A DNA stretch of 64,000 nt from Thermoplasmata archaeon (GCA_021796385.1 JAJYXQ010000043.1:137652-201651); one strand, 5' to 3'. Positions 1,681-11,683 are shown, counted from the first letter of the stretch. Translations and numbers: made by a program. Notes: a model not told the origin generated them from the letters alone.

Positions 1681-2706
1681 CTACTTCCTTGCCTTCGGGG
1701 AAAGCCAATCCCGGACCCCATCGGAAATGAGGACGATGGAGAGACCGAACATAGCGATCCAGACGCCGGGAAACAGCGCCCCCCACCAATAGACCCCGAA
1801 CGGATGGTCGGGTTGCGGGAGCCATCCGCCCGTAAAGGCGAGCCCGGCACTCAAGATGCCCCCCCACTCCGGGTAATTGAAGCGAGGCACCACGGGAGCC
1901 AGGGACGAAAGACCGGAGCCCATCGTAGAGCAGCTCGTTCCTCCGGACGTGATGATCGCCGTGGTGATGAACTGCGAGGTGATTATAAACGTGAGCGTCA
2001 GAGCGACGGTGACCGGTACCTGGGCAAGCGCCGGGGAAGCGCTGTTGGGGAGGATGTGGTGGAGCAGGATGCGGCCGGAGGAGGCGCCCGAGGCCTTGGC
2101 CGACTCCACATAGGTCGTCGTCCGTACGCGACTTGCTTCCCCACGAACGACCCGCGTGAAAGGGGCCCACATCACGCCATTCATGGCCCCTATGAAAACG
2201 TAAGGCCCCTCGGTCGGGGGAACTCGGGGAAGCGCGATAACGAACACGAGGATGACGAGAACGAAATAGGGAACCGAAAGGAAAGCGTCCGTGACCATCA
2301 TCACCACCCTGTCCACCCACCCCCCATATGTCCCCGAAGTGAGTCCGAGAAAGGTTCCTATCACGGTGGAGGGTACGGTGATGGCCGAGATCAGGAAAAG
2401 ATCCCACCGGGAACCGGCGATGAGCCCCTGGGCCACTCCGAAACCCATGTACTCGGTCTGGCCCAAAGGGTGATCCCCAACGGAGAAAGGGAAAAACTGA
2501 AGGGTGGGGCCCTGCGGGGCGGAACAGTGCACTAACAAGGCGGTGTCGACCGGGATCGCCGTCAGTGTCCGGGGATATAGAAACGGTGCGACCATCGCCG
2601 TTGCCACATAGAAGGAAAGAAGGGTCACTCCGGCCAAAAAGGGCGGCCGGCGCAGAAGCGACCGCAGCGATTCGGACCAGGCTTGGTAACGAGTAGAGGT
2701 GGCCAC
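1681..2706 (-). CDS. ABC peptide/nickel transporter permease, DppC/OppC family (paralogue 1)
   Basis: C-terminal 341 aa of ORF 1681..3792; GTG at 2706 overlaps upstream TAG and follows GGAGG; HPLGQT, YVESAKASGAS..HILPN, DGVRDW. Confidence 0.88.
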   Translation of the reverse strand: MATSTRYQAWSESLRSLLRRPPFLAGVTLLSFYVATAMVAPFLYPRTLTAIPVDTALLVHCSAPQGPTLQFFPFSVGDHPLGQTEYMGFGVAQGLIAGSRWDLFLISAITVPSTVIGTFLGLTSGTYGGWVDRVVMMVTDAFLSVPYFVLVILVFVIALPRVPPTEGPYVFIGAMNGVMWAPFTRVVRGEASRVRTTTYVESAKASGASSGRILLHHILPNSASPALAQVPVTVALTLTFIITSQFITTAIITSGGTSCSTMGSGLSSLAPVVPRFNYPEWGGILSAGLAFTGGWLPQPDHPFGVYWWGALFPGVWIAMFGLSIVLISDGVRDWLSPKARK

Positions 2707-5411
2707 TACGACCCTCCATCGGAACCCGCCGAGATCCGGGGATCCAGCCACCGTACCAAAAGGTCTGCGATGGCATTCGTGAACACCACAGCGATCGTGA
2801 AGAGGTACACCAGCGCGGCCAAGGACGACGGGCTGACCGACCCGGTAAGAGCATCCCACGCTGAGGTGCCCAATCCCACATCGGCAAAGACCACCTGCAC
2901 CACGGTCAGGGTGATGAGGAAGGCGCCGAACGTCGTGGAGAAAGCGGAGACGTAAAGCGGGAGCGAGCGGCGGGCCGCATGCTTCCAGAGCAACGCGCGC
3001 TCTGAAACGCCTCGGGAGCGGGCGGCGACCACATCCGGCTGCTCGGCGGATTCCGCCGACGACGTCCGAAGATACCGAAGGTAGATCGATGAGTAGATGA
3101 GTGCGATGACCGAGGCTTGGAGAAGCGTTCCCGCGGCGATGTACGCCTCGAGGAACCACGCCCCATGCCAGGCTGCGTCTATGAGGGGAAAACCCGTAGG
3201 GGAGGTCGTCATGTAGGGACTGACCCACCTCGGGATCCCTCCCATGTTGGAATCGTACCAGGAAGCGCTCTGCGGCATCAGGCCAAACACCGAGGAAAAG
3301 CTTCCGAACAAACCGATCCAAAGCGCATAGAACCAGCCGACGAAATAGAGGGAGAGCAGAATCGTGGGCCAAAAGAGACCGAGGGCGGAGTACACGCGGG
3401 TCGAGTTGTCGAGGGCATGTCCCCGCTTCCACCCCGAAGCCAGTCCCAAGGGATACGAAATGAGCACGCTGAGGGCCAGGCTGACCAGTCCGAGCTCCAG
3501 TGTAGGAGCGACCAGAGTCACGATGGGCAAGGTAAGGCTCCCCCCGATGGTGTACGGGAGGGGTTGCTGAAGCCAGGCTCCAGTGAAGAACGTGTAAAGA
3601 TAACCCCCAAAGCTTGTGAGCTGACCGATGACCGTGACGTTCGTTCCGATGGTTGGTACGAGAACCACGAGGACGAAGACGATCCCCACTACCAGAACGA
3701 GGCGAGAAAGTGTCTCCAAAGCCACCCGAAGGAGAGGGGTACCGAACCCACGCCAGCGATGGAACGAAGGTGAGGACCGGTATTCTTCCCACCGAAGGGA
3801 TAGCTCCTCCCGGAGCTCGAGGGAGAACCTCCGGATCTCCCTATGCTTTGCCAATCGGAAGAGCGCGCTCCCAAGCCACCGTGGGAAGGAGACCGCGGTC
3901 GGGAAGGAGAAGCCCGAAAGGACGGCCCTACGGTCCTTCCGGCTCCGAACGCCCCGATCGACCCAGGCAAATGCACCCAGGGAGAACAGCCCAACAACGA
4001 TCCAGAGAAGGCCCAGCCACAGCCACGGTATCGGGGGCGGTGGAGACGGAGCGATCGGGGCAGGGAACACCGCGACCTCCACAGCGTTCGACACTTGGTT
4101 ACCCTGGGAATCGGTCACGGTCAAGGTGACGGAGAACTGGGTGGAGAGATTGACACGGAACGTATGCCGGACGACCGGTCCATAGCCATACCCCTCGGTT
4201 GGGCCAAAGCCCCAAGTGTAGTTGTAGGGAGGAAAACCCCCTGAGGGGGACGCCGAGAACTCCACGGTCAGCGGCGATGTACCACTAAGGGTGGAGGCTG
4301 TGATACTGAACCGTATTCCCCCGGGGGTTCCACCCATGGGAACAAAGAGCTCCCACGGAACGATGGTCGAATAATGGAAAGGTACTCCTCCGAACAGGAT
4401 GAACAGGTTCGGACGGATAGAAGGGGTCGGGACCAAGGAGGCTCCTCCGGTCGGCGGTGGTGTGTCCGCCTTGGGAGTGAATAGCGGAGTCAGGTTCTGC
4501 CAGGTACCATTCAGGAAGGTCCAGGTGTCGTTGAGCACACCCTCCTTTCCGAAGCCACCATAGAGAAGGGGATAACCTCCCGCAGTTGCGCTTGATGCGC
4601 TGTCATATCTTGGGGATGGAGCTTGGGCGAGAGGGAGTTGCGACCATGATTCGTTCTGGAAGATCCAAGTGTCGTTCCATAGCGTGGTTCCATTGGTGCC
4701 CCCGAACAAGTACGCTTGGAATGTTGTCGGGTTGTAGCTGAAGGCCGCACCCCAACGAGCGGCCGGGACACGGGGAAGGGTGAGCTCAGACCAGACGCCC
4801 CCTTGGAAAACCCAGGTCTCACTGCTGGGCGCTCCCCCCGCCGTCTCTCCGCCAAACAGGACAAGGCCGTTCACGCTGGAGTCCCACACCATCGATGCAA
4901 AGGCAAGGGGCGGCGGGGCATGGGAAATTGGCATCCTCGACCATGCGTCCAGCGAAGCGTTGTAAAACCAAGTATCGTTGAAGAACGTGACGTTGTTCTT
5001 GCCCCCGAAGAGTACGGCACCTCCCAACAAGGGGTCTGTCGCAAGGGCCGCACCCTCCCGAGCACTGGGACCAATGGTGGGCACCGGAAACCATGTCAGG
5101 GCGGATTCTGACTCGGAAAAGACCCAAGTGTCATTACAGAACCCTCCGCATCCGATCCCACCAAAAAGGAGCCCCTTGGCAGGGGTCCCACCTAACCAAG
5201 TGGTGCTGGCGTTCGAACGGGCGCTCACGTTATAGACCGCCTGTAACGGAGGCTGGGACCATATCGGTGGAGGACCCGTCGACGGAACGACCGATCGGGA
5301 GCTATCCGCAAGGCTGACCCCGGGCAATCCCGCCAAGAGAAAGGCCGCAACGATGGCTAGCCAGAACAGGCTGCCGAACGATCGGTTACAAAAACCAATC
5401 CGCTTGGCCAT
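2706..5411 (-). CDS. Signal peptide + Kelch-repeat propeller + PKD domain fused to DppB/OppB-type ABC permease
   Basis: Repeated R.GA.....LFGG....NDTW units; PKD-like VEFSASPSGGFPPYNYTWGFG; permease part with PTLELGL, EAA loop VVAARSRGVSERALLWKHA and NAIADLLVRWLDPRI. Confidence 0.85.
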   Translation of the reverse strand: MAKRIGFCNRSFGSLFWLAIVAAFLLAGLPGVSLADSSRSVVPSTGPPPIWSQPPLQAVYNVSARSNASTTWLGGTPAKGLLFGGIGCGGFCNDTWVFSESESALTWFPVPTIGPSAREGAALATDPLLGGAVLFGGKNNVTFFNDTWFYNASLDAWSRMPISHAPPPLAFASMVWDSSVNGLVLFGGETAGGAPSSETWVFQGGVWSELTLPRVPAARWGAAFSYNPTTFQAYLFGGTNGTTLWNDTWIFQNESWSQLPLAQAPSPRYDSASSATAGGYPLLYGGFGKEGVLNDTWTFLNGTWQNLTPLFTPKADTPPPTGGASLVPTPSIRPNLFILFGGVPFHYSTIVPWELFVPMGGTPGGIRFSITASTLSGTSPLTVEFSASPSGGFPPYNYTWGFGPTEGYGYGPVVRHTFRVNLSTQFSVTLTVTDSQGNQVSNAVEVAVFPAPIAPSPPPPIPWLWLGLLWIVVGLFSLGAFAWVDRGVRSRKDRRAVLSGFSFPTAVSFPRWLGSALFRLAKHREIRRFSLELREELSLRWEEYRSSPSFHRWRGFGTPLLRVALETLSRLVLVVGIVFVLVVLVPTIGTNVTVIGQLTSFGGYLYTFFTGAWLQQPLPYTIGGSLTLPIVTLVAPTLELGLVSLALSVLISYPLGLASGWKRGHALDNSTRVYSALGLFWPTILLSLYFVGWFYALWIGLFGSFSSVFGLMPQSASWYDSNMGGIPRWVSPYMTTSPTGFPLIDAAWHGAWFLEAYIAAGTLLQASVIALIYSSIYLRYLRTSSAESAEQPDVVAARSRGVSERALLWKHAARRSLPLYVSAFSTTFGAFLITLTVVQVVFADVGLGTSAWDALTGSVSPSSLAALVYLFTIAVVFTNAIADLLVRWLDPRISAGSDGGS

Positions 5412-5421
5412 CCCGACATCC

Positions 5422-5976
5422 TCAGCGGGGTTGGTTTATCAAGGAGTTTGCTCGTACCGGTCGACATCGGTACAACCAATCCTCCCGGAAGGCCATGTCC
5501 CGGGGCAATCGATGGAACCATCGGACCTCGGATATCTCGTCGGGGACCAGGGAACGTGGCTTACCCGATCGCCACTGGGCCACGTATTGGAAGATGTCGA
5601 AGCGAAGAGGGGAGTCGCCTTGCTTGGGAGAGGTGTACGAGTTCCGGTAGACTTTCCACAGGCGCAAACCCTGAACACGGACCCCCGCCTCTTCATGTAT
5701 CTCTCGGTGGATGGCCCGTTGCGGCGTCTCCCTAGGTTCGACACCACCGCCCGGTGTCATCCACTGACGGGACCAGCCGTTCTCCCGATGCTGACGGACG
5801 AGGAGCACTCGATGGCGGTCGTCTTCCACGCGGGCGGCGACCCCTTGGACGATCCCCTGCGCGATACGGACCCTCAGCCGATCATACGCCAACTGGGTCA
5901 CAGGACATTCCCGAAAGATCTCTCGGGCAGAGAAGGTCTCAGGATTGCTTAGCTTACCGGGGGATAACTTCGACAT
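5422..5976 (-). CDS. NUDIX hydrolase
   Basis: Nudix box GGGVEPRETPQRAIHREIHEEAG; start uncertain. Confidence 0.85.
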   Translation of the reverse strand: MSKLSPGKLSNPETFSAREIFRECPVTQLAYDRLRVRIAQGIVQGVAARVEDDRHRVLLVRQHRENGWSRQWMTPGGGVEPRETPQRAIHREIHEEAGVRVQGLRLWKVYRNSYTSPKQGDSPLRFDIFQYVAQWRSGKPRSLVPDEISEVRWFHRLPRDMAFREDWLYRCRPVRANSLINQPR

Positions 5977-6199
5977 CCTATCGTTCAAACGGTGGCAACA
6001 CCGGATTCAAATGTCCCCCAAATATCCGAACGGTTAGGCGACTGGGAATACCGGAGCTTAGCATGATTCCGTATCTTTGCCCAGGTTAACGAGGTATATG
6101 TACTCACTTCGCAACTTCGGTGCAAATATGCGGTCAACAGTATTGTCCTGTGCCAGCACCCCGATGGTCTTGTCGTCATCCAGTCGAGTGGGGGAACGT

Positions 6200-7704: not shown

Positions 7705-7919
7705 GCGTGGCGGTGGACTGCGTGAAGGTATTTAAGTTGAAGAGTGTTCCCACCGCACTTTTGACCACTTTGGTCCCGATTCACTGGACGAACCTCACCC
7801 CACCAACGCGGCGTTTAAACCGGCGACCACCACCCTGCTGACCCAAATCGGCCTTTCTGGACGCTCGCATGGGAGCCCCTACCGAAATAGGTTTTACACT
7901 CTTCGTCGTGACCTGCGCC

Positions 7920-10865
7920 ATGTCCCCTTCGCTGCGAGGTTCCTCACTACCCCTCCTCGGGCGGAAGGCAGAACTAGCCCGCCTCACCGAAGCCCTCCGA
8001 AAGACCGCGTCTGGAGAGGGCAACTTTTGGATCGTTTCAGGTCCAGTGGGGATTGGGAAGAGTCGCCTCCTAGAGGAGGTTTGCCGCGTCGCAGAAGAAC
8101 AGGGGTTCCAGGTCCTAAGTGGAACATGCTCCCGCATCCCTCGCTCCGCCTGTGAACCGCTCGAGGGAGCCTTGGAGGGACTTACCCCGAATGAAACCCC
8201 GGCCGGAACGAGGGTTCCAACTCGCGCTTCGCTCCTAATTGCGGAAGGCCCACCCAGTCCTCGTATTTGGGAGGTTTTCCGAGAATTGGCCCATTCCCGG
8301 AAATCCCTTGTGGTAAGTCGAGACTTTTCGCCGGTGCTGAAAGAGCAGCTGGGGAATCTGGCTAAGTCAGTGTCGGTCCTGCAATTGAGCCGGAAAGAGG
8401 CTAAGGACTCCGTTTCTCCGACTTCCCTCGATGCCCTGGGAGAGCGGATCGATGGGTTCTTGCGTCTCCACTCAGGATCCGTTGTCGCCATTCCCGACCT
8501 CGAATACCTCGTCGTACAGAACAGCTTCCTCGCTGTCCTCCGATTGCTCCAGTTCCTTCGAGAGGTGGCCGATGCGACCCAGGGTCACATCCTCCTTTCC
8601 TTCAACCCGAAGAGCTTGGATGCCCGGGAGGCTGCCCTTCTCGAAGGTGAGGGAGAACCGCTCGTCCGGAAGGATGGTGGCCGAGAACGCCTTAGCCCAG
8701 AAGCACCCACCCTTCTCTCCCCGCAGACCCGATTGCAGTCATATTTGGAGAAGATCGAGAAGGCGGCCCGGAGCGTCCCCTTGCTCTTGGTCTTGGAGGA
8801 CCTCGGTTGGTCGGACCCTGAAACCCCGTCGGCGCTTTCCTTCCTTGTTCGCAACACCCGTCATCTCCCGGTGATGGTCCTTGGGGCGATTCGCTCCTCG
8901 GATTGGGGAGGTGAAGTGACCGGCAATGTTCCCCTCAATGAAGAGATCGATGAACTGGCCCGCCAGGGCCTGCTGTCGCGCATGAACTTGCACGCACTTC
9001 CCACGGAGGATATTCAATCCCTCATCCAATCCCACCTCACCCTCCGCTCCGAGGGGGGAACCGCCTCGGAACCCCGCCTACTAGCTTTACCGCTCGATCA
9101 CGCCTCCGGCAACCCCCTGGTCGCCCTGGAGCTTGTTCGGGCGCTCGTGCGAAAAGACCTCCTTCAGTTACGGGAGAACCGGTGGGTGCTCGTCGAGCCC
9201 AAGGCATCGCGCTCCGCGAAAAGACCTCGGGAGCAAGTGTTGCTGCACCAAGGGTTGCGCCATCTCGTGCTTGGCATCCTCGAAGACCTGGAACCGTTAG
9301 AGAAGGACATGATCGAGACCGCGGCGGCCATCGGACCCATTTTTCCGAAGGACGCGCTCGCGGCCATCCTTGATGTCCCGGCGGAACAGGTGCGGGATCT
9401 CCTTAGAAAGATGGACCAGGTGCACCAGTTCTTTTCCCCCTCAACCACCGACCCTGAGACATGGAGGTTTTCCCACCCCTACTTCCACGAGGTGATCATC
9501 GACAATATGGTTCCCGACCGATTGGCCGCGCTCTCAGCAGACCTGGCGGAGTGGTTCCGCTGGAACCGCCCCCAGGACCTGAGCATGATCGGGCGACTCT
9601 TCGTCGAGAGCAAGGAAGGGGTGAAGGGGATCCCCTGGGTATTGAAGGCCGCCGAAAGTGCCCTGGCCCGAGGTGATGGATATACCGCTCAGATCATGGC
9701 GGAGGGAGCCTTGGCCCTCCTCGGCATCCGTCACCCCTCCCGGGAAAGGGTGCTTGAGACCTTGGTGAGTGTGGCGGAGACGTTGAGCTTGGTACGGGAG
9801 CATGCTCGGGCCGAAGTGCTCCTTACCCGTCTCCTCGAATCCCGTCCCCCGCCTGAGATCTCCTGGCGCACGCGCAGGTTGCTGGTCGACACCTTGCTAT
9901 CCCAACGGAAGCTGGGAGAAGCCAAGAGCGTGTTGACCCAGCTTTCTCATGAACTTGCGGATGAGAATTCTACCGAAGCTCGAAGGACGCTGCTCACCTG
10001 CGAAGTGCTGCGCGCCGAGTTCGAGATGCTCGCCGGAGACGCAGAGACCTCCAGCATGACCACCATGAACGTTCTCAAGAAGCTCGAAGAGGACTCCCGA
10101 TTGGAGGCGTGGGAATGCCGCGCCCTAGAGCATCAGGGTTGGTCCCTTCTTGGGAAAGACAACCTGGCAAAGGCCGCTCTCGCGTTTGCCCGGGGAAGGG
10201 AGATCGCCCGACGACTGGACCTCGTCCCTTACATCGCCTTTCACGCGAACGGCCTGGGACGGGTCGAGACCCTGAAAGGTAACGCGGCCGAGGCCCTCAG
10301 GTACTACTCTGAGGCCCAGGAAGCGGAGCGAAGGCTTGGCGATTTTCTCGCGGCGGCCGAATACCAACGGCTCGCCGCCGAAGTACTGTACCTCTCGGGT
10401 CGCCTTGGAGAAGCAGAGGAAGCGGCCATCCAGTCCCTGCAGACATGCGAGAAGTTCGATGCCTTGGCTACCGCGGGCCGGGCACTCTATCTCCTCGGCA
10501 AGGTGAACATTGAGCGACACCGGTGGGAAGATGCCAAGGTGAACCTTTCCCTGGCCATCAACCGGTTCACTCTGTCGGGAGAGACCGGGGTACTCGATGA
10601 GGCCAAGCTCTTTCTGGCCCTGGTCCAAGGAGAGACGGGGAACCCCCGGGGCGCCTTTGAAGAGGTCGGGCCCATACCCAGCGGGGGGGCCTTTCGTCAC
10701 CTCATCCTAGGTCGGCTGCGGGAGCTGTTAGGGGACGCGGAGGAGGCCCAGACCGAGATGCGCGCGGGGGAAGAGGAGGCCCGGACGCTGAGCCCGCTCG
10801 AGCAGCACAAGGTGCAGGACCTCCTCCGGGCGTTCGGTGAGCGGAGCTCCTCGCCAATCGTCTGA
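7920..10865 (+). CDS. STAND-like AAA ATPase with inserted DUF835-like domain and C-terminal TPR repeats
   Basis: LLGRKAEL, Walker A GPVGIGKS, Walker B LVLEDLGWSD, GNPL motif, WRFSHPY winged helix, helical repeats; insert with DLEYLVVQNSF..LRLLQFL typical of DUF835. Confidence 0.8.
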   Translation: MSPSLRGSSLPLLGRKAELARLTEALRKTASGEGNFWIVSGPVGIGKSRLLEEVCRVAEEQGFQVLSGTCSRIPRSACEPLEGALEGLTPNETPAGTRVPTRASLLIAEGPPSPRIWEVFRELAHSRKSLVVSRDFSPVLKEQLGNLAKSVSVLQLSRKEAKDSVSPTSLDALGERIDGFLRLHSGSVVAIPDLEYLVVQNSFLAVLRLLQFLREVADATQGHILLSFNPKSLDAREAALLEGEGEPLVRKDGGRERLSPEAPTLLSPQTRLQSYLEKIEKAARSVPLLLVLEDLGWSDPETPSALSFLVRNTRHLPVMVLGAIRSSDWGGEVTGNVPLNEEIDELARQGLLSRMNLHALPTEDIQSLIQSHLTLRSEGGTASEPRLLALPLDHASGNPLVALELVRALVRKDLLQLRENRWVLVEPKASRSAKRPREQVLLHQGLRHLVLGILEDLEPLEKDMIETAAAIGPIFPKDALAAILDVPAEQVRDLLRKMDQVHQFFSPSTTDPETWRFSHPYFHEVIIDNMVPDRLAALSADLAEWFRWNRPQDLSMIGRLFVESKEGVKGIPWVLKAAESALARGDGYTAQIMAEGALALLGIRHPSRERVLETLVSVAETLSLVREHARAEVLLTRLLESRPPPEISWRTRRLLVDTLLSQRKLGEAKSVLTQLSHELADENSTEARRTLLTCEVLRAEFEMLAGDAETSSMTTMNVLKKLEEDSRLEAWECRALEHQGWSLLGKDNLAKAALAFARGREIARRLDLVPYIAFHANGLGRVETLKGNAAEALRYYSEAQEAERRLGDFLAAAEYQRLAAEVLYLSGRLGEAEEAAIQSLQTCEKFDALATAGRALYLLGKVNIERHRWEDAKVNLSLAINRFTLSGETGVLDEAKLFLALVQGETGNPRGAFEEVGPIPSGGAFRHLILGRLRELLGDAEEAQTEMRAGEEEARTLSPLEQHKVQDLLRAFGERSSSPIV

Positions 10866-10957
10866 AGTTCTGGACGCTACACCCTGGGAGACCGGAAGGC
10901 AACGTGCCCCGGTCCGAAGAGTTTAAGGAGTGGAGTAACTTCCCTCCCTCGAAGCCC

Positions 10958-11683
10958 ATGAAGGGAAAGGATGCTCCAGGGGGTCCGCGGGTCAAGACAT
11001 ACGTGGAAGGCTTAGATGAGAAAATGGAGGGCGGAATCCCGGAAGGCAACCTGGTGCTGATGGCCGGAGAGGCCGGGACCATGAAGAGTTCCGTCACCTA
11101 CCACATGGCCTATCAGAATGCGCTCAAGGAAGGACGCCGCACCCTCTACATCACCATGGAGCAATCCCGGCAGAGCCTCATCCGAAACATGGAGGGGCTT
11201 GGCATGAAGGCCGACGCCGTGGGAGACAAAGTCTCGATCGTGGACATCGGTCTCCTTCGGAAGAACCTCGGCAAGGAGCTCCAGACCAACTCTTGGCTCG
11301 AGATCGTCAAGATGTATGCCCAGAACATGAAGGACTCGTCCGGGTATGAAGTGCTCATCCTCGATTCGTTGCCGGTCCTCGAGACCCTTTCGGATTTCAA
11401 GAACCCGAGGGTCGACCTGTTCCAGTTCTACGAATGGCTTCGAGAGCTTGGAGTGACCTCCCTCCTCGTGACCGAGGTCAAAGGGGATGCCGGCTTCGGG
11501 ACCCGGGGTGAGGACTACTTGGCCGACGGCATCATCCACCTCATGATGGCGAAGGTGAACGAGGAGACGGTACAGCGCCGGCTCCGTATCGTGAAGATGC
11601 GTTCGACGAACCATTCGACCAATCTCTTCTCCCTGATCGTCGACAAGGGGAACTTCCGGGTGGCCCGGGTCATCAGCACGTAG
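10958..11683 (+). CDS. KaiC/RAD55-family RecA-superfamily ATPase (single domain)
   Basis: KTYVEGLDEKMEGGIP, Walker A GEAGTMKS, LILDSL, ADGII, RRLRIVKMR. Confidence 0.9.
   Translation: MKGKDAPGGPRVKTYVEGLDEKMEGGIPEGNLVLMAGEAGTMKSSVTYHMAYQNALKEGRRTLYITMEQSRQSLIRNMEGLGMKADAVGDKVSIVDIGLLRKNLGKELQTNSWLEIVKMYAQNMKDSSGYEVLILDSLPVLETLSDFKNPRVDLFQFYEWLRELGVTSLLVTEVKGDAGFGTRGEDYLADGIIHLMMAKVNEETVQRRLRIVKMRSTNHSTNLFSLIVDKGNFRVARVIST

Follow-up and report, generated by a model that had tools for sequence, protein, structure and literature searches.

A Kelch beta-propeller fused to an OppB-type ABC permease in Thermoplasmata archaea: a candidate tethered capture module of a putative accessory importer of the peptide/nickel family

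Type I ATP-binding cassette (ABC) importers depend, in the textbook account, on a bilobed binding protein both for the delivery of substrate and for the trigger of ATP hydrolysis. A gene in a stretch of 64,000 nucleotides from a Thermoplasmata archaeon (GCA_021796385.1 JAJYXQ010000043.1:137652-201651; the whole of this stretch is hereafter called the window) raises the question of what a permease of this kind might do when its external module is of an entirely different sort. The gene codes for a single protein (P0001) in which a signal peptide, a six-bladed Kelch propeller, a PKD-like domain, a proline hinge, an extra transmembrane (TM) helix and a basic linker precede a complete OppB/DppB-type permease with its EAA loop. 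A first-pass annotation of the window had read it as one 901-residue open reading frame (ORF) at 2706-5411, and we recovered precisely this frame on the minus strand, opening with ATG and closing with TAG (Table 1). The same annotation knew of no described Kelch-PKD-permease fusion; in the literature that we searched, with supplementary tables outside its reach, we likewise found no published description of a Kelch or any other propeller fused to an Opp/Dpp permease.

The fusion is genuine and not an artefact of assembly. A search of 5.8 billion proteins returned 62 matches, and in 15 of these, which are 35-97% identical to the query and align over 89-100% of its length, both the Kelch and the BPD_transp_1 domains are present; among the 150 matches listed from a search of representative proteins, about 12 align over propeller and permease and the rest over the propeller part only. 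Scanning one genome per prokaryotic species with two peptide patterns taken from the fusion protein gave 62 loci, all but three of them titled as Thermoplasmata or Lutacidiplasmatales archaea (two exceptions are titled 'bacterium' and one 'Methanobacteriota archaeon'). Since both patterns derive from the fusion protein, this sample is biased towards its own permease subfamily. The Kelch-PKD-permease architecture occurs in 15 ORFs at 14 of these loci, distributed over nine Thermoplasmata metagenome-assembled genomes (MAGs), so that the recurrence in related genomes that had been set beforehand as a check is provided by both searches. Moreover, independently assembled contigs from four metagenome runs belonging to two studies, of mine drainage and of sediment, cover positions 2400-5700 with zero indels. 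Three of these runs are possible sources of the MAG itself; in the run not flagged as such, a contig spans 3106-4364 with 0 differences, and no indel separates ectodomain and permease in the independent contigs. That two genes were united by an assembly error or a frameshift might have been entertained given that the sequence comes from a MAG and that distant relatives possess split forms, but the explanation is effectively refuted by the 15 full-length homologues, the nine other MAGs and the indel-free contigs, and also by the linker, which has a TM helix of its own and a consistent topology. The first-pass annotation would have taken the fusion as refuted had all relatives encoded the parts as separate genes; some do (L051, below), but the 15 full-length homologues keep it. 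One relative carries the process further, with Kelch, PKD, OppB and OppC in one chain of about 1300 residues (L011:9830-13762, plus strand; P0016), and this shows a joint action of the B subunit and its neighbouring C subunit. The proteins P0069, P0072 and P0076 (1267-1316 residues) may be of the same type.

Profile searches, hydropathy and an AlphaFold2 model agree on the make-up of the chain. A hydrophobic segment at residues 14-32, of the signal or anchor type, fits the signal peptide that had been noted earlier. Over residues 132-342 Pfam PF24681 recovers the Kelch domain, scoring 113.3 bits where 50 are required, and the model, built from a 16-sequence alignment (mean predicted local distance difference test score, pLDDT, 76.6), folds it into six four-stranded blades with pLDDT of about 90, in agreement with the five to six Kelch-like repeats earlier placed at about 4340-5180. 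Behind the blades the model places a beta-sandwich (367-449), a long helix (463-497), three linker helices and the helical permease; with a predicted template modelling score (pTM) of 0.43 the mutual placement of these domains is not predicted. The nearest structural neighbours found by Foldseek are the peptide- or protein-binding Kelch domains of LZTR1, KLHDC2/3/10 and KLHL12 (target-normalised TM-score about 0.8, 16-19% identity), which is a generic fold match. As for the PKD-like domain placed at about 4070-4320, its position and its beta-sandwich in the model were borne out, and a precomputed PKD match is on record for 11 of the 15 full-length homologues; in the fusion protein itself the profile match is sub-threshold, PKD_4 reaching 23.6 of the required 27 bits over residues 378-446. 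A jackhmmer map finds one PKD copy in the stalk of the fusion protein and three in those of the relatives L027 and L041.

The segments that connect ectodomain and permease are equally apparent in hydropathy, residue composition and the model: the proline-rich stretch and extra helix are followed by a linker that was earlier called arginine-rich and that holds 18 lysines and arginines against seven aspartates and glutamates, with low conservation in the 16-sequence alignment. As 15 of the 17 N-x-S/T sequons fall within residues 1-460 and the linker is basic, the ectodomain would lie outside and the linker inside the cell, with an N-in/C-in permease, and the extra helix (TM0) is predicted from sequence and model to bring the chain from the exterior into the cytoplasm. 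We also observed that the N-D-T-W motif of the Kelch repeats (4377-5234, minus strand) doubles as an N-glycosylation sequon, and that in most blades the loop ahead of it holds one or two sequons.

We examined whether the propeller might be an enzyme, as are the Kelch-fold galactose oxidase and the NanM-type mutarotase, whose particular catalytic positions were not mapped onto the fusion. Across residues 47-345 of the 16 sequences no His, Tyr, Cys, Asp or Glu is invariant; the invariant positions are occupied only by W, G, P, R, L, F and N, of which W, G, P and R are structural residues of the Kelch repeat. This lack of invariant polar residues of the catalytic type argues against an enzyme and in favour of a scaffold for binding.

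The permease part shows the features of an importer subunit. BPD_transp_1 matches residues 653-894 with 72.3 bits (cut-off 26.4), and hydropathy delimits six TM helices (571-589, 633-651, 673-691, 754-772, 820-838 and 859-877), which are helical in the model too. Among solved chains it resembles Escherichia coli DppB (8z1v_A, e-value 2.5e-10) and, more remotely, 8wd9_B (2e-07) and 8j5q_B (1.3e-05). It shares with E. coli DppABCDF and Mycobacterium tuberculosis DppABCD/OppABCD (8z1v, 8wd9, 8j5q) the B-type fold of six TM helices with an EAA loop, the TGF-x-LID loop motif, an OppC-type partner and, elsewhere in the genome, ATPases with the oligo_HPY domain. A related motif, TxPTGFP[LIM][IVL]D, was considered as a signature of the subfamily and dropped, for E. 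coli DppB has TGF-x-LID too. The EAA loop between TM4 and TM5 aligns with the corresponding region of E. coli DppB, and its residues R800, G801, L807, L808 and W809 are invariant in the 16 sequences. No substrate-specific equivalog such as NikB, OppB or DppB was reached: every NCBIfam match stays far under its cut-off, the best being Opp2B with 91 bits against a cut-off of 350.

The gene directly downstream codes for an OppC-type permease, and its GTG start shares one base with the TAG stop of the fusion (TAGTG); a second OppC-type gene, 57% identical to the first, follows 160 nucleotides further on. One to three such genes stand directly downstream of the fusion in all 14 Kelch-fusion loci, and the tandem duplication suggests alternative C subunits. 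Three tandem copies follow the Kelch fusion in L017 (12538-15743, plus strand), and two follow fusions of another propeller type, described below, in L035, L037 and L058. That the permease pair has ceased to transport, and now serves as a regulator or decoy for the ATPases or as a mere membrane anchor for the propeller, appears very unlikely to us. The absence of ATPase and binding-protein genes from the cluster would fit such a loss, as would the failure to reach an equivalog and the strong divergence from solved DppB (43 bits, where the canonical OppB of this class of archaea scores 127); yet the EAA loop and many residues of the TM domain are invariant down to 33% identity, and the partner OppC is always kept and often duplicated. 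The intact EAA loop, the similarity to DppB/OppB and the relative in which OppC is fused as well (P0016) rather point to a working subunit of an importer.

How, then, might such a pair be energised and supplied with substrate? In line with the first-pass annotation, profile searches found no OppA/DppA or OppD/OppF gene in the three-gene cluster, nor any other ABC ATPase or SBP_bac_5 gene there, the nearest ABC_tran match on the contig (C63) lying about 70 kb away. OppD/OppF ATPases are absent from the cluster, from the window and from each of the 14 Kelch-fusion loci, and no gene for a family-5 binding protein adjoins any of the 36 fused ORFs of all types. Both components are nevertheless encoded elsewhere in the source genome, which is 91.9% complete in 81 contigs. 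Exactly two oligo_HPY ATPases are found in it, adjacent to each other behind a canonical OppC on a contig of 4.6 kb (C39), and this single OppD/OppF pair would account for the missing ATPase of the cluster. Contig C39 ends 17 bp upstream of OppC, so that the assembly may have dropped a canonical OppB; the permease of contig C37 was tried as a candidate for it and proved unrelated to Opp permeases. The single family-5 binding domain (SBP_bac_5) of the genome forms the N-terminal part, some 800 residues, of a surface protein of 2727 residues on contig C2 (L006:5918-14101, minus strand), the remainder of which consists of beta-sandwich repeats (NOMO1-like, DUF7055); its gene adjoins mutS and mutL and is remote from any permease. 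In relatives, homologous binding proteins of about 1030 residues carry an N-terminal PKD domain.

The relatives show a comparable distribution. Of five other Kelch-fusion genomes, four encode a single pair of adjacent OppD and OppF genes, located on a contig other than that of the fusion, together with two to four OppB-type genes each, and the fifth lacks the pair. Across the 62 loci, Opp-type ATPases occur in six (L031, L040, L045, L063, L066 and L067), none of them fused, while L016 yields no more than weak and partial hits to ABC ATPases of other types; matches to the family-5 binding domain are confined to L045, L063, L066 and L068 and a tail fragment in L040, all canonical loci. In L031, L045 and L063, and partially in L040 and L067, the order is oppB-oppC-oppD-oppF-oppB'-oppC', with an unfused pair of the subfamily described below (marked by a prime) directly behind the ATPases. 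With one ATPase pair set against several permease pairs, the sharing of ATPases is the simplest reading; multitask ATPases such as MsmX and MsiK offer a precedent among sugar importers. The apparent use of one ATPase pair by several permease pairs in archaea is of interest in its own right.

On these grounds we tentatively favour the following arrangement, drawn from sequence comparison. The fusion would be the B-type subunit of an accessory type I importer of the peptide/nickel family (PepT, Opp/Dpp-class), in which a predicted N-glycosylated Kelch propeller is held outside on its PKD stalk by the extra TM helix, in one covalent chain with the permease. The latter would pair with one of the two downstream OppC-type subunits, and the pair would be energised in trans by the only OppD/OppF pair of the genome. 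The non-catalytic propeller would capture an external ligand, a peptide or protein or else a glycan, at the translocator and hand it over to the pore, and it would most likely be the system's own receptor, a functional analogue of a binding protein. The first-pass annotation had already proposed a built-in receptor or a polymer-capturing adhesin; the architecture, its recurrence and the lack of binding-protein and ATPase genes in cis all hold, while the replacement of a binding protein by the propeller goes further than these observations carry. In favour of a built-in receptor we count the occurrence of two propeller types, the split Kelch-PKD genes beside unfused or stalk-only permeases (both treated below) and the short extracellular loop between TM1 and TM2.

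A study on E. coli DppABCDF (PMC12136057) bears on this loop: a scoop motif of 30 residues, located between TM1 and TM2 of DppB, reaches into the DppA cleft, and zero ATPase activity is reported for DppBCDF without DppA. Counted from where TM1 ends up to the conserved LEL motif in TM2, the loop of the fusion protein (n=1) comprises 49 residues and contains no recognisable scoop-like sequence, being shortened although still present. The median is 56 residues in the Kelch-fused permeases (n=16), 58 in unfused members of the same subfamily (n=25), 72 in members bearing only CarboxypepD_reg domains (n=6) and 75 in members bearing a PQQ-type propeller (n=15), as against 106-108 in canonical Thermoplasmata OppB (n=3). 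In L022, the one sequence of the PQQ type that was inspected, this loop holds a Cys-rich insertion.

Several observations weigh against the favoured arrangement. The loop of E. coli DppB, by alignment, is about 68-70 residues long and thus only about 20 longer than that of the fusion. The short loop is common to the 25 unfused members, so that the subfamily needs no fused propeller; being a subfamily-wide trait, the shortening by itself is no proof that the propeller took over the role of a binding protein. Family-5 homologues are encoded away from permease genes in this genome and in all five fusion-bearing relatives examined, which makes a binding protein in trans as possible as an ATPase in trans. 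The variation of the PKD copy number from one to three suits a reaching tether more than a precisely docking lid. Finally, the canonical OppB is missing from the assembly, so that the Opp inventory is incomplete, and Kelch surface proteins are abundant, with 18 Kelch frames in the source genome, so that some of the adjacency between Kelch and permease genes could be due to chance.

Some of these points would also suit an accessory antenna, an alternative that we consider possible if rather unlikely, in which the transporter would continue to rely on a family-5 binding protein in trans, here the N-terminal domain of the 2727-residue surface protein, and the propeller would only concentrate or position a polymeric substrate or the binding protein near the pore. 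The permease-remote binding-protein homologues and the variable length of the stalk agree with it, as do the inactivity of DppBCDF without DppA and the unfused pairs that stand directly behind canonical oppBCDF with a PKD-bearing binding protein beside them. It has to contend, however, with the absence of an adjoining binding-protein gene from all 36 fused ORFs, with a TM1-TM2 loop half as long as that of the canonical OppB of the class, and with a genome in which one binding domain would have to serve at least two permease sets.

We compared the permeases of the 62 loci; the set comprises 71 permease ORFs, a count that takes in the fusion of the window as well as the C37 permease, which is unrelated. 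Judged from its sequence relationships, the permease belongs to a subfamily specific to Thermoplasmata, which we name OppB-prime. The ORFs fall into those with Kelch and one or three PKD copies (15, plus the window's fusion), those in which a PQQ/BamB-like propeller is combined with two CarboxypepD_reg domains (15, including L022, L025, L028 and L048), those with CarboxypepD_reg only (6), ectodomain-free forms of 340-430 residues (about 25), and a few others, L036 and L054 among them. Pfam confirmed the PQQ/CarboxypepD_reg architecture in each of the four sequences checked. In L036 (8438-10912, plus strand) an 824-residue member of the subfamily carries about 520 N-terminal residues without a Pfam match. 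Using the permease domain as query for longer proteins recovered 20 fused forms, all of which bear automatic names only; 19 are of the Kelch or PQQ type, and for P0220 only the permease match is recorded.

A quick maximum-likelihood tree was computed from 64 permease domains, leaving out seven rows: four cut by contig ends, two with an internal stop after extension and the unrelated C37 permease. In this tree two canonical OppB proteins from oppBCDF operons lie on a very long branch outside all others, and the Kelch fusions branch off in several groups at the base. A single clade, with 100% support in the Shimodaira-Hasegawa-like approximate likelihood ratio test (SH-aLRT), unites the unfused forms with those of the PQQ/CarboxypepD_reg type, and inside it the latter cluster at 92%; the four prime permeases from oppBCDF-linked loci make up one clade. 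Architecture changes nine times on the tree, as against a mean of 33 with shuffled labels. OppB-prime has been joined to propeller ectodomains at least two times independently, in the absence of a cis binding protein or ATPase, and this makes it a testable case of a different module for capture or gating. Like the Kelch fusion, the PQQ fusions (L022, L025, L028, L048) present the order of propeller, Ig-like stalk, extra TM helix and OppB-prime permease, and neither type has ATPase or binding-protein genes in cis; they differ in the propeller family, in the stalk domains and in their separate clade, and their database names are automatic only. A generalisation that we regard as doubtful would see in both types a Thermoplasmata class of importers lacking the bilobed binding protein, in which a Kelch or PQQ propeller, fused to OppB-prime or anchored beside it, captures the substrate and also gives the docking signal that activates the shared OppD/OppF. 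If true, ABC importers would have arrived a second time at a way of delivering substrate, by a structure unrelated to the first.

Separate genes for the same modules provide a further line of evidence. In L051 the gene for an unfused OppB-prime is preceded on its strand, at a distance of 438 bp, by one for a Kelch-PKD protein that closes with a TM anchor and a proline-rich tail; the permease has a proline- and arginine-rich N-terminus ahead of TM1. The locus corresponds exactly to the fusion cut at its cytoplasmic linker, which explains where the extra TM helix and the basic linker come from. In L049 a gene for Kelch with three PKD domains follows the genes for a CarboxypepD_reg-permease and its OppC on the same strand, and in L021, L024 and L029, whose shared arrangement we counted as one event, two C-terminally anchored Kelch proteins with two PKD domains each are encoded divergently beside two CarboxypepD_reg-permease pairs. 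The genome of L021 has four Kelch frames, two of which lie beside this locus. The presence of Kelch and PQQ propellers on one permease subfamily, together with these split neighbouring genes, suggests a functional link between propeller and permease.

The Kelch-PKD part might instead serve primarily in surface adhesion or cell-cell contact, in which case the fusion would make import go along with attachment to a surface, to a biofilm or to a partner cell; this we hold to be improbable. Proteins combining Kelch or YVTN propellers with PKD domains are described as surface-layer or adhesion proteins of acid-mine archaea in two reports (PMC5498576, PMC10354927); where Kelch-PKD is encoded separately beside a permease, the product is an ordinary surface protein anchored at its C-terminus, and the abundance of Kelch frames in the source genome is in keeping with such a role. 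Against this, two unrelated propeller types on one permease subfamily suggest a role bound up with transport.

Comparison with other systems sets off what is particular to the fusion. Unlike the subunits of DppABCDF and OppABCD, it has about 565 extra N-terminal residues comprising the signal peptide, Kelch, PKD, TM helix and linker; its operon has no gene for a binding protein or an ATPase, and its 49-residue loop lacks a recognisable scoop motif. The covalent tethering of an extracytoplasmic module to the TM domain is reminiscent of GlnPQ and OpuA of Lactococcus lactis, although the module there has the bilobed binding-protein fold (PMC8025302, PMC11065425) in place of a beta-propeller with an Ig-like stalk, an added TM helix and a cytoplasmic linker of 80 residues. 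A beta-propeller that helps an ABC importer from outside the membrane is found in AztD of the zinc importer AztABCD; as reported (PMC6689063), AztD is a separate soluble periplasmic chaperone that hands zinc to a classical binding protein, and the Kelch domain of the fusion differs from it in having no conserved metal-ligand residues in the 16 sequences. With hosts that are abundant uncultured archaea of acid mines and of peat and soil, the design may shape the scavenging of peptides or glycans there.

Table 1. Position of the fusion gene, its parts and its immediate neighbours in the window
Feature	Position	Strand	Basis
Whole fusion gene, 901 residues + TAG stop, ATG start (P0001)	2706..5411	-	ORF reading, Pfam, 15 full-length homologues
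N-terminal Sec-type signal peptide, residues 1-35, core 14-32, putative cleavage SLA/D	5307..5411	-	sequence reading; cleavage inferred
Six-blade Kelch beta-propeller, residues ~60-345	4377..5234	-	Pfam PF24681, AlphaFold2, Foldseek
PKD-like Ig-fold stalk domain, residues ~361-450	4062..4331	-	PKD_4 below cut-off, AlphaFold2 beta-sandwich, jackhmmer
Pro-rich hinge and extra helix TM0, residues 451-485 (TM 466-484)	3957..4061	-	sequence, AlphaFold2, hydropathy
Basic helical linker, predicted cytoplasmic, residues 486-565	3717..3956	-	AlphaFold2, residue composition
OppB/DppB-type permease domain (OppB-prime), residues 566-901, six TMs	2709..3716	-	BPD_transp_1, DppB similarity, hydropathy
Short extracellular TM1-TM2 loop, residues ~590-636, 49 residues as measured	3504..3644	-	loop-length comparison
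EAA loop / coupling helix between TM4 and TM5, residues 786-818	2958..3056	-	invariance in 16 sequences; aligns with E. coli DppB EAA region
OppC-type permease paralogue 1, 341 residues, GTG start	1681..2706	-	Pfam, NCBIfam
OppC-type permease paralogue 2, 341 residues	495..1520	-	Pfam, identity comparison
YVTN/NHL beta-propeller surface protein gene	1-101, running on left of the window (L002:14284-15939)	-	
NUDIX hydrolase gene	5422-5988	-	

Examination of the remaining gene context revealed no further constant partner. Clustering the conserved neighbours in 13 regions yielded no peptidase, glycosidase or other functional partner, and only the fusion and the OppC genes recur across the relatives. 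The NUDIX hydrolase gene ends 10 nucleotides upstream of the ATG of the fusion and may be co-transcribed with it. About 390 nucleotides downstream of the cluster lies the gene for a YVTN/NHL propeller protein, followed by the gene for the small subunit of PolD; in L008 and L009 the latter comes directly after OppC. The propeller protein is the product of the secreted gene starting at 98 that the first-pass annotation had left to be identified: its signal peptide begins at Met63 of the ORF, its C-terminus forms a TM anchor that is followed by an RRRR tail, and among NCBIfam families it matches the 'PQQ-dependent catabolism-associated beta-propeller' one weakly and below threshold. The NUDIX and YVTN/NHL genes were considered as parts of the system and set aside, because neither recurs beside the fusion in relatives. 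Farther along the window, on the plus strand, a protein of 998 residues (7869-10865) combines AAA_16, DUF835 and MalT-like TPR domains in a STAND-like arrangement, and its gene is followed by one for a KaiC-family ATPase (10904-11683).

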